Part shown: positions 5,473-12,967 of the stretch, piece after piece
Layout of the letters: each line of letters starts with the position of its first letter
Position numbering within the stretch: position 1 is the stretch's first letter
DNA from: Saccostrea cucullata
Taxonomy: Eukaryota
DNA length: 64,000 nucleotides
Direction: 5' to 3'
Assembly: GCF_032062105.1 (NCBI RefSeq)
Contig: NW_026920673.1
Coordinates: forward strand, 1 to 64,000
Made by a program: the position numbers and the translations under genes
The notes under the pieces: model-generated
The model's database searches: none
The model's input: only the letters and a program-made list of their open reading frames with translations
Told to the model about the DNA's origin: nothing

Positions 5473-5499
5473 ATGGCAGACCCTATGCAGACCAGATGG
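5473..5499 (+). CDS. Predicted LTR-encoded first coding exon (MADPMQTRW) for spliced ORF3
   Basis: First ATG after the TATA box (gggATGg), 9 codons, then GTAATT donor at 5500 in phase 0, matching the phase-0 acceptor at 11630. The junction itself is inferred. Confidence 0.5.
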
Positions 5500-5956
5500 G
5501 TAATTATATTAGTCAAGTTATATTAAATTGAGACGCTGAGGTACCCCTGTGGGAGGCCCATAAGTAGAGTGGGAGACCCATCGACGGGAAAACTTATGGG
5601 AGAATTTATGGGAGTTACAATTTATTATTAAAACTATATAGGACTTAAAGAATAGGTATAAATAAATTATATTAAATCAAGGAAAGTATATTTTAGTACA
5701 AGTAGCTAATTTTTATAATTGTTTTGGGAGATTTAGATTTTACCTACGGGTTGTGGGAGTGACTTCACTTTATAGGTAACTGATATTGTATTGTGATTTT
5801 TATTATAACAATACTTACATTTAATTGTACATAGTGTAAATAAATTTTATTTGTTGGACTTTTATCCTGACTGAATTATTAATTTACAAGTTAACATACG
5901 AAAGTGGAAAGCCCACACAGTTGCCCCACTCTCTCCCGAGGTGGGAGGCGCAACAC

Positions 5957-5974
5957 TGGTGTCAGAAGTGGGAT
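5957..5974 (+). other. Primer binding site, tRNA-Leu type
   Basis: TGGTGTCAGAAGTGGGAT lies 1 nt after the 5' LTR and is complementary to the 3' end (..ATCCCACTTCTGACACCA) of metazoan tRNA-Leu(CAA). Confidence 0.85.
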
Positions 5975-6102
5975 CAAGTCCCTTTATTTGGGAAGAAATT
6001 TTCCACATCCTCGGTTAGCTTTATTAAATTCAAAATTTTACAATCATTGAAATTTCATAGCGTACAATAAAATACTTAAAAAAAAAAAAAAAAGTCACAG
6101 AA

Positions 6103-10600: not shown

Positions 10601-11463
10601 CTCCTTTAGAGAGGGTAGCAATTGACGTTATGGGACCATTGCCCAAATCCAATAAGGGAAATCTCTACATCTTAGTTATGGGCGATTATTTTACAAAATG
10701 GGTGGATGCGGTACCCATACGTAATCAGAAAGCTTTCACAGTCGCTCAAAAGTTAATTGATAGAATAGTTAGTATTTTTGGAACACCCATGCAAATCCAC
10801 AGTGATCAGGGAAGATCATTCGAGTCGGATGTATTTAGGGAAATGTGTAGGATTTTAGGCATCGAGAAAACCCGAACCTCACCATATAGACCTCAGTCAG
10901 ATGGGTTGGTAGAGCGGGCAAACAGAACAATAGAAAATATGTTAGCATCATTTGTTTCTCAAAATCAAAAAGATTGGGACGAACATTTACCCTTGCTCAT
11001 GTTAGCTTATAGGTCAGCCCAGCACGAGTCAACTGGCGTAAGTCCATGTGAGATGATGTTTGGTAGGCATGTTTCTCTCCCAGCTGATTTAGTATTGGGA
11101 AGGTTACAACCTGAAAGTACATTAGAATTGTCAGAATATGCTTACAAATTGTCTCAGACTATGGATAGAATACATGAGTTTGCTAGAGATAAAATGAGCT
11201 TAGCTACAGAAAAAATGTTAAGGGAATACAACTCAAAGATAAATTTTCAAGGTTACAAGGAGGGAGATCTTGTATGGTACTACGCCCATAATATTAATAA
11301 AATGGGATCACCAAAGCTCCAATGTCATTGGTTGGGACCTTACTTAATTCTGAAAAGAATCAATGATGTTATATACAAAATTAGAAAAACAACAAAATGC
11401 AAACCCAAAGTTGTTCACTATAATTTGTTGAAGCCTTACAAAGGAAGTAATAGACCCAACTAG
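7602..11463 (+). pseudogene. pol: Gypsy pol (protease, RT, RNase H, integrase); frameshift in the G run at ~9113-9119 and in-frame TAA at 10285-10287
   Basis: FLVDSGA (protease); YLDD (RT); TDAS..RELLA..TDH..NADALSR (RNase H); H..GHLG..C..C, DQG, ERANR and GPY (integrase). No chromodomain. Confidence 0.95.
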
Positions 11464-11630
11464 TAATATGGGATCTGCCTCGAAATATATGTAGCTTAGT
11501 GAATATTAAATAGCTAATCATTTTGTCGGAAATTTTAGTAAATCATCTTATGCAGTTTAATTATGCCCATTATTAATGTTTGGGATGTTGTCAGAAATGA
11601 GGGACTAAGTATCCCTTTATTACTTTACAG

Positions 11631-12967
11631 ATCCAAAGATTCAGATGTGGACTGTGCACAGAAGACAGAGAGTTCACGCAACAGAGTCACTGTGAAAGGC
11701 ACATGACTGCAGTGCATTCAGGGTTTGTCTTCAGATGTGATACTTGTGGCATCGTATTGGGACGAAAGGACCAGAAGCACGGGTGTGAGGGGAGGACTCT
11801 TCAGAGAGTGAAGAAATCGACACTCACGCTAACCATTGAAGAGGAGAAGGAGTTCGAGGCTTTCCAACGTGGGCGAGGTAGATACGTTGTGCCCTTTATG
11901 AAGGAGCTCCCGTTAGTGTTCAACGATCAGCCGTACCACCTGGGCCAAGCAAAAAAGAGAGCAATGTACACGGAGCCTCACCAAGGACGGAATGCCAAGA
12001 AGCGACCAAAGAGATCCGCACAAGCGCCAGCACTCCTGTCATCACATAAGTCCACCCAGCGCCTGCACTCCTGTCGATGTCGACCAAGAAGTCCATCACA
12101 GCGCCTGCGCCCTTGTCAACCAAGATGCCCACTCCAGGGCCTGCGCTCCTGTCAACCGAGAAGTCCGACCCAGCGCCTTCCCTCCTGTCGATGCCGACCG
12201 AGAAGTCCGACCCAGCGCCTTCCCTCCTGTCGATGCCGACCGTGAAGTCCACCCCAGTGCCTGCTCTCTTGTCGACCGAGAAGTGTGCCCCAGAGCCTGC
12301 ACTCCCATCAACTGAGAAGTCCATCCCAGCGTCTCCACTCCTGCAGTCGGAAAAGTCAACATCATCACGTCAGAGTAAGAACGATTCACCGCAGAGGTCT
12401 TTCAAACGATTATTCGGGGACAGTTTAAGTGACTCGTCAGATGAAGAAGATCTTCTGACTCCTGATATTTCAATAACGGAACCACCTGTTACTTCTACGC
12501 CCAGTAGAACCCTAACAACCATGACGGAGAGGGAGTTTGACAAACGAGACGTTTCGATACAGACTTCCCCCAGTGGTAGCGCACATCCCTTAGTGTCACA
12601 ACAACGTATTGGTCTGGATGTTGGAGGGAAACTATTTATGACGACAGTTGCCACTCTTACAAATCAACCTGATTCCCTTTTCGCAAGGATGATGAAGGAC
12701 CCCACCTTATTACCTGCTTATAATATACTGGATAGAGGGAACCTACCAGTCTACTTTATTGACCGTGATGCCACCTACTTCGATGTCATACTCCATTACA
12801 TGAGAGATGGACCGAAGAACATTAATTGCCATTTACCTAATGACGCGAGGACCTTAAGGAAAATCCACATCGAAGCGGTATATTATAGATTAGAGACGCT
12901 AGTTGAAATAATCGGAAGCCAGATGTTTGTGATGATTTTTGGACACAAAGAGTTCTCAGAAGAATAA
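11631..12967 (+). CDS. Gypsy ORF3: C2H2/CCHC zinc fingers, basic NLS, Pro/Ser/Thr tandem repeats, acidic patch and C-terminal KCTD/T1-type BTB domain; one 1-bp deletion at ~12055
   Basis: From the acceptor: IQRFRCGLC..F..SHCERHMTAVH SGFVFRCDTC..KHGC; KKRPKR; IGLDVGGKLFMTTVATL..PDSLFARM..YFIDRDATYFDVILHYMRDG..EAVYYRLETL is a classic KCTD BTB signature. Joins the ORF-track entries at 11703 and 12077. Confidence 0.85.
12020..12360 (+). repeat. Coding minisatellite of 36/42-bp units (TEKSxPAPALLS[MP])
   Basis: Repeated gagaagtccgacccagcgccttccctcctgtcgatgccgacc-like units. Confidence 0.85.

Follow-up and report, generated by a model that had tools for sequence, protein, structure and literature searches.

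We analysed a 64,000-nucleotide stretch of DNA from the oyster Saccostrea cucullata (NCBI RefSeq assembly GCF_032062105.1, contig NW_026920673.1, positions 1 to 64,000, forward strand; hereafter, the window), in which positions 4894-14236 are a recent, broken copy of a Ty3/gypsy long terminal repeat (LTR) retrotransposon with a third open reading frame (ORF3) behind gag and pol. ORF3 is very probably made by splicing a start-codon mini-exon that lies inside the LTR to an exon that follows pol. We put at about 0.8 the probability of the wider reading, namely that the element belongs to a mollusc Ty3/gypsy lineage in which an LTR start exon is spliced to an exon coding for zinc fingers and a BTB domain, the protein being likely a nuclear, multimeric regulator of its own element. 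An earlier prediction, made from the letters of this DNA (hereafter, the original prediction), had proposed the splice, and this interpretation is supported by the gene models and the conservation described here.

The probable splice junction in the window copy and in two gene models

The proposed junction involves the following features of the window.

5355..5361, forward strand: TATA box (TATATAA), 118 nt upstream of the exon ATG
5473..5499, forward strand: ORF3 coding mini-exon MADPMQTRW, 27 nt, 9 codons, whose gggATGg is the first ATG past the TATA box
5500..5505, forward strand: putative splice donor GTAATT, phase 0, weak, present in 39/41 family LTR rows
5500..11630, forward strand: predicted intron of 6131 nt, with the rest of the LTR and its poly(A) signal, the primer-binding site (PBS), gag and pol
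5776..5781, forward strand: alternative donor GTAACT, private to the window copy (2/41 LTR rows)
11604..11630, forward strand: branch-like word, pyrimidine tract and acceptor CAG, phase 0
11631..12967, forward strand: ORF3 exon 2, with a zinc-finger module (~11631-11960), a basic KKRPKR cluster, a repeat array and a BTB_2 domain (~12611-12901)

The TATA box, the first ATG with its nine codons and the phase-0 donor were all located as the original prediction had described them. A TGA at 11598 does close the ORF3 frame, whose first ATG (11703) lies inside finger 1, between the two His. The acceptor TTACAG ending at 11630 is in phase 0, as claimed, and has the best pyrimidine tract (13/17) among the 20 AGs between 11464 and 11720. 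The join would remove the PBS, gag and pol, as had been proposed. The branch-like ACTAAG was also present, at 11604-11609, but conservation of a branch point among the distant loci described below was not supported: a YTRAY-like word was found in 6/11 of them, at varying positions. On unspliced RNA, the mini-exon ATG would open a 17-codon upstream open reading frame (uORF) ending at 5526. From the mini-exon to the LTR end there are 455 nt in the window copy and 334-676 nt in other families. Support for the donor at 5500 is its conservation, not its strength.

Two NCBI gene models contain the same junction. The RefSeq protein XP_062606823.1 (LOC134268575, 415 aa, Saccostrea cucullata), annotated on a sister copy, corresponds exactly to the 9-codon LTR exon joined to ORF3: residues 1-9 map to L009:685-711 in the LTR and are followed by GTAATT, while residues 10-415 (406 residues) map to L009:7212-8429, directly past TTTACAG. 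In Crassostrea virginica, XP_078324263.1 has a 12-aa start ending in QTRW, followed by VQRFKCGLC, which is the same junction; a read-through call in its cluster has ILFQ before VQRF instead of QTRW.

Conservation across families and molluscs

Besides the window copy, the genome contains 11 near-full ones at 91-96% identity, together with more distant partial copies and solo LTRs. Some copies have flanks in common and probably represent haplotigs of a single insertion, so that rows overcount insertions. Among the own-family LTR rows, the donor is kept in 39/41 and the in-phase ATG in 36/41. The acceptor is found in 16/18 internal copies, the remaining two carrying a deletion that takes the acceptor and the fingers; six of the 16 have a frame that stays open for 340-446 codons from the acceptor. 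Conservation at sister-copy identity by itself proves little. Two loci (L017:7000-7010 and L018:2280-2290) represent an older derivative, in which ~800 bp including the acceptor and fingers are missing and the BTB part is kept.

A protein search of the genome gave 69 matches, and 36 distant loci were taken for comparison. Their ORF3 finger regions are ~31-66% identical to that of the window, and their reverse transcriptase (RT) is 60-73% identical in the 16 of them whose RT match is long; the RT tree comprised own-genome rows only (19/41 rows). An AG stands directly before exon-2 codon 1 in 30/36 distant loci (29 YAG, 1 AAG), against a YAG background of 1.4% (19/1380). It stands one codon earlier in two loci and is lost or displaced in four. 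The intron side of the acceptor is unrelated between families, with 9-19 of 42 positions identical.

The LTRs of these loci form 10 families that can be aligned only in patches of 20-106 nt. In all 10 (one LTR each), the first ATG after the TATA box is followed by 7-15 codons and then by the first donor-like GT in phase 0, and the mini-exon ends in R-W or R-M in eight of them. A TATA-like box lies 53-121 nt before the ATG in 11/12 LTRs, and AATAAA lies downstream of the donor in all 12 examined. A loose ATG..G/GTAA feature was found in 16/17 LTRs and in 5-15% of shuffles; a strict ATG-donor feature was found in 13/17 LTRs and in at most 1% of shuffles. The check suggested with the original prediction, conservation of the ATG, donor and acceptor among family members, thus turned out in its favour, in most sister copies as well as in the 10 divergent families. 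The phase agreement is more than chance, being conserved across families and matched by the RefSeq models. One family (L055-L059) has an almost linker-less ORF3 of 252 codons and a different PBS; the LTR exon and acceptor are kept.

Codon changes point in the same direction. The dN/dS ratio of the finger module is 0.04-0.12 in 7/13 pairs, the other six being saturated at silent sites. The codons ahead of the first internal Met show 67 silent and 37 replacement changes (252 codons, 11 pairs). In 13 aligned proteins, neither Cys of finger 1 varies. Judged from these changes, the zinc-finger module is under purifying selection, including the codons before the first internal Met. Since the silent excess and the invariant Cys precede that Met, finger 1 needs an upstream start in most families.

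A profile search returned 1857 matches, many of them ordinary multi-finger proteins. We examined 68 single-stretch matches, of which 19 clearly carry a BTB domain too; in many of the 68, F-Q or L-Q precedes the first Cys by a few residues, which is what reading through a phase-0 acceptor would yield. Named members among the 20 clusters looked up come from Mytilus (3 species), Pecten, Pinctada, Mercenaria, Crassostrea and the gastropod Gigantopelta. The annotation gives these mollusc relatives as host proteins, "uncharacterized" or "potassium channel regulatory", and three gene models fuse the ORF3 domain to integrase or gag. Of 181 metagenome contigs, one was confirmed (L070), with gag, pol and ORF3 in order and a phase-0 CAG acceptor; there is no LTR on this contig. 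None of 34 pattern matches in viral contigs was confirmed. The in-LTR position of the start exon was examined in the Saccostrea cucullata genome only.

The ORF3 protein, its candidate roles and competing explanations

In the predicted ORF3 product, two zinc-binding motifs are accompanied by a helix and a basic patch, and a variable linker rich in Ser, Thr and Pro leads to a BTB_2 domain. The zinc finger of the original prediction was borne out, and the C-terminal BTB domain, which had not been named, is an addition. Finger 1 has the form CxxC..H..H and finger 2 CxxC..H-x-C; the module has no Pfam C2H2 match. The BTB domain matches BTB_2 (PF02214) with an E value of 1.7e-15 and 57.6 bits (cut-off 21.4), as expected of a KCTD-type BTB, and its best PDB matches are KCTD5, KCTD9 and KCTD16. 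In the AF2 model, the finger module and BTB are ordered and the middle linker is disordered (mean predicted local distance difference test score 65.7, finger module alone 83.5), and the last mini-exon residues are modelled within the first strand. A Foldseek search with the finger module gave nothing at E 0.001, and an atlas search gave unnamed clusters with weak C2H2 links. The basic patch, which resembles a nuclear localisation signal (NLS), is found in 13/29 family members.

Two further short motifs were seen. Around 12400-12500, in the otherwise variable linker, RSFKRLFGD..S.S followed by [ST]PD.S is kept in four proteins at 43-57% identity, with KRLFDD in L050; this stretch looks like a putative cyclin-docking RxL motif and phosphodegron. 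A YxP[TS] motif 23-24 residues upstream of the BTB start is present in 11/29 members (including L034, L037, L041, L048, L050 and L054) and absent from the window subfamily.

The following mechanism is suggested by this layout. Transcription would begin at the LTR TATA box, and the weak donor would leave part of the RNA unspliced, to serve as genome and gag-pol message. On this unspliced RNA, the mini-exon ATG opens only a short uORF before gag (10-23 codons across families); the uORF is seen in the sequence, and an effect of it is presumed. Spliced RNA would shed the first poly(A) signal, gag and pol and supply the ORF3 start codon. It would also lack the PBS, because this site sits inside the intron, and we infer that it would be excluded from reverse transcription or packaging, as the original prediction had supposed for reverse transcription. 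The BTB domain would then oligomerise the protein, and the fingers would bind repeated sites in the element, so that the bound protein might promote transcription of the element or export of its unspliced RNA, as Tas, Rev or CERV do. The chances seem to us about even that the ORF3 protein is a nuclear oligomer binding the DNA or RNA of its own element. Candidate sites lie in the LTR:

5550..5947, no strand assigned: TGGGAG/TGGG-CCCA motif array downstream of the donor, putative binding sites

Arrays of TGGG(A/T) in both orientations occur here and at equivalent places in L035, L040, L041, L042 and L048, with a TGGG-AGA-CCCA inverted pair. TGGG/CCCA words are enriched downstream of the donor in 6/10 families (0/200 shuffles each) and are not in the other four; in most R-W families the prevailing word is TGGGA, in R-M families TGGGT. 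The arrays could be a lead for ORF3 binding; host factors, G-run splicing enhancers or RNA hairpins might account for them just as well. A fuller scheme can be drawn for a widespread "complex" mollusc Ty3/gypsy lineage that would code for a regulator of its own, as HIV and foamy virus do, and in which the LTR start codon acts as a switch, giving a uORF when unspliced and a captured KCTD-BTB regulator when spliced, the latter binding TGGG(A/T) arrays and driving transcription, anti-silencing or genomic-RNA export. As a whole, we regard it as tentative and rather doubtful.

A different role for the protein is conceivable with the same splice: the BTB domain might recruit Cullin-3 (Cul3), with the fingers picking a host silencing or restriction factor for degradation. 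Vif/Vpx and the poxvirus BTB-kelch proteins are precedents for the degradation of host factors, large DNA viruses carry BTBs similar to that of ORF3, and the nearest solved BTBs include KCTD5, KCTD9 and KCTD17, which bind Cul3. However, KCTD16, KCTD1 and KCTD15, which are not known to use Cul3, score nearly as well against the ORF3 BTB, and the basic patch and C2H2-like fingers fit nucleic-acid binding better than an adaptor role. A predicted complex of two BTBs with the N-terminal part of Cul3 (host exon 100% identical), run without alignments, scored 0.01 and is no evidence either way. We consider the Cul3 adaptor the main alternative for the role of the protein, though less likely than the regulator.

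The splice itself has competitors. ORF3 might be expressed without it, either under an internal promoter or through initiation at the Met within finger 1, the LTR donor only controlling polyadenylation. Many database calls do begin at the internal Met, and in foamy viruses a donor placed before AATAAA, as it is in 12/12 LTRs here, permits the suppression of 5' polyadenylation by U1 (PMC3694450). This explanation nevertheless leaves unaccounted for the fixed phase 0, the first-ATG rule and the R-W/R-M exon end, as well as the codon-1 AG across divergent introns and the silent excess and invariant Cys upstream of the Met, and we find it highly improbable; poly(A) control may be a second use of the same donor. 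Splicing from another donor, at 5776 or in gag, had been named with the original prediction as what would speak against it. GTs at 5776, 7024, 6926 and others do outscore 5500 on a generic matrix. The 5776 GT, however, occurs in 2/41 LTR rows only, both belonging to the window copy, is missing from the other 39, and lies beyond the stop of the uORF; in both RefSeq models the donor is that of the LTR exon. We give little credence to this possibility, conservation having been compared for the LTR donors.

Several points count against splicing from the LTR exon, or against the nucleic-acid-binding role that goes with it. On the generic matrix, the donor at 5500 ranks 12/105 among the GTs in 5370-7700; in the divergent families, stronger GTs lie further downstream in 6/10 LTRs and just upstream of the ATG in 1/10. 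The 10/10 result did not come from a fully blind test, as the TATA sites and a 1.5-bit threshold were fixed after the candidates had been viewed, and the families share ancestry, so that family counts are not independent. The family L054/L060 has a Met ahead of the first Cys inside exon 2. The start exon is seen in one of the 15 listed members of the C. virginica cluster (21 in all), while the older RefSeq model of that locus and the Logan calls examined begin at the internal Met. The two RefSeq models may in part be ab initio or protein-guided predictions. Among the 24 runs listed, the RNA runs contain at most 0.28 of the indexed ORF3 words; three runs are raw oligo-dT with the same species label. 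The spliced start of ORF3 is supported by conservation and by two NCBI models rather than by junction reads. As to the fingers, the fold matches of the module to C2H2 DNA-binding folds are weak (Foldseek best E 0.29, VIA Z at most 4.9).

Relation to known systems and other features of the window

The way in which ORF3 is expressed varies a known scheme, the splicing of an ORF3 to a short coding exon that precedes it. In Drosophila errantiviruses, env-F (ZAM, gypsy5, tirant, HMS-Beagle) is translated from a subgenomic RNA made by splicing, and a short coding exon located before gag supplies the start (Senti et al., PMC12992720). The oyster element resembles them in having a Ty3/gypsy ORF3 after pol, a start exon upstream and a spliced RNA, features supported here by conservation and the RefSeq models. 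In Dataset EV2 of that source, coding exon 1 lies downstream of the 5' LTR in 13/13 elements with both coordinates, a count that leaves out Beagle2, springer and gypsy3, for which the LTR coordinate is not shown; in ZAM, the LTR spans 1-473 and the coding exon 494-531 (PMC12992720). The oyster start exon, in contrast, is part of the LTR and precedes both the poly(A) signal and the PBS. The proteins differ too: the errantivirus F-type envelope has a signal peptide, a furin site and a transmembrane (TM) segment, whereas the oyster product is predicted to be soluble, made of zinc fingers, linker and BTB. In foamy viruses, the major splice donor is in R, within the LTR and upstream of the poly(A) signal, in both LTRs (PMC3694450), and env uses non-coding upstream exons (PMC7828637). 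The donor-in-LTR layout is alike, but the oyster LTR exon supplies a start codon.

The CERV protein of the Caenorhabditis elegans element Cer1 is a spliced accessory protein that resides in the nucleus and has an NLS and a Cys finger; it is predicted to form ring-shaped multimers and is needed for export of unspliced RNA. It shares exons with gag, has H, M and G domains and no BTB, and is described as lacking a homologue outside nematodes (PMC10309623). Both CERV and ORF3 are accessory products of LTR retrotransposons, set side by side here by description; ORF3 has a BTB domain and CERV does not. Bdelloid LTR elements have captured non-envelope ORF3s (GDSL, DEDDy or TM), typically made from spliced messages (PMC5408684). 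The capture of a non-envelope gene is alike, but the cargo is different, the words "BTB" and "zinc" being absent from the text of PMC5408684. KCTD/T1-type BTB proteins have a similar BTB_2 domain, but ORF3, a retrotransposon gene, carries it at the C-terminus, behind two zinc fingers. In ZBTB factors, the domain order is the opposite and the BTB is of another type. PMC7084138 and bioRxiv 2025.03.14.642691 were also consulted, and "BTB" has no occurrence in PMC6238403 and PMC10294476. Literature searches, which did not extend to Repbase Reports or subscription journals, turned up no description of an ORF3 with BTB and zinc-finger domains in LTR elements of molluscs. The start exon inside the LTR and the zinc-finger-BTB cargo across molluscs were not found in print and are new here.

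Accessory genes other than env are rare in the LTR retrotransposons of animals, and little is understood of them; the tested example that we found is CERV. ORF3 adds one under purifying selection that is conserved across at least 10 families in one oyster. With a start exon inside the LTR and upstream of the PBS, a single weak donor would link the splicing of the RNA to the choice of poly(A) signal and to the translation of gag. The defined protein and junction provide a handle on how mollusc retrotransposons regulate themselves or evade silencing.

The window copy is a Ty3/gypsy element by its LTRs, PBS, polypurine tract (PPT), target-site duplication and the pol order protease, RT, RNase H, integrase (PR-RT-RH-IN), arranged as 5' LTR, PBS, gag, pol, ORF3, PPT and 3' LTR. 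Its remaining features are as follows.

4894..5955, forward strand: 5' LTR, ends TGTTAC...GCAACA, 4-bp target duplication GAAG/CAAG
5839..5844, forward strand: AATAAA poly(A) signal, downstream of the donor, with a 3' LTR twin at 14120
5957..5974, forward strand: PBS, presumably of tRNA-Leu type
6061..7671, forward strand: gag frame, stop at 7189, PF03732 below cut-off
7581..11463, forward strand: pol (PR-RT-RH-IN), in the -1 frame relative to gag, with a frameshift and a stop in the window copy
12001-12347, forward strand: ORF3 repeat array of 36/42-nt units, frameshifted in the window copy
13395..13403, forward strand: PPT
13407..14236, forward strand: 3' LTR, with a ~232-bp deletion that takes the mini-exon end and donor

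The insertion is recent, because the two LTRs differ at six aligned positions outside the deletion, two of the six being at the deletion edge. The copy is broken by the gag stop at 7189, a pol frameshift at ~9110-9240 and a stop at 10285, and an ORF3 frameshift at ~12050-12240. It looks recombinant in the 5' part of ORF3, because positions 11631-11960 differ from L005 by 31 silent changes in 110 codons (dS 0.63) despite ~95% identity element-wide. A GGGAAAC heptamer at 7591-7597, at the start of the gag/pol overlap, is likely a -1 frameshift site; it was also seen after the gag core in 5/8 other families tested. Predicted RNA structure was not unusual downstream of this slippery site (z +1.04) or over the R region (z +0.13).

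Elsewhere in the window, an intronless host gene of B-box/coiled-coil/NHL-like (TRIM) type, assigned by eye, adjoins the element at 15129-16880 on the reverse strand. Pieces of a LINE-type ORF with reverse-transcriptase motifs lie at 20315-22449 on the forward strand, flanked by inverted repeats at 17984-18134 and 22735-22885, and tandem arrays with periods of 148, 437 and 168 bp occupy 23200-31100 and 37332-38640. Exons of a dystroglycan-like host gene, also recognised by eye, were found at 40012-45835 on the reverse strand.

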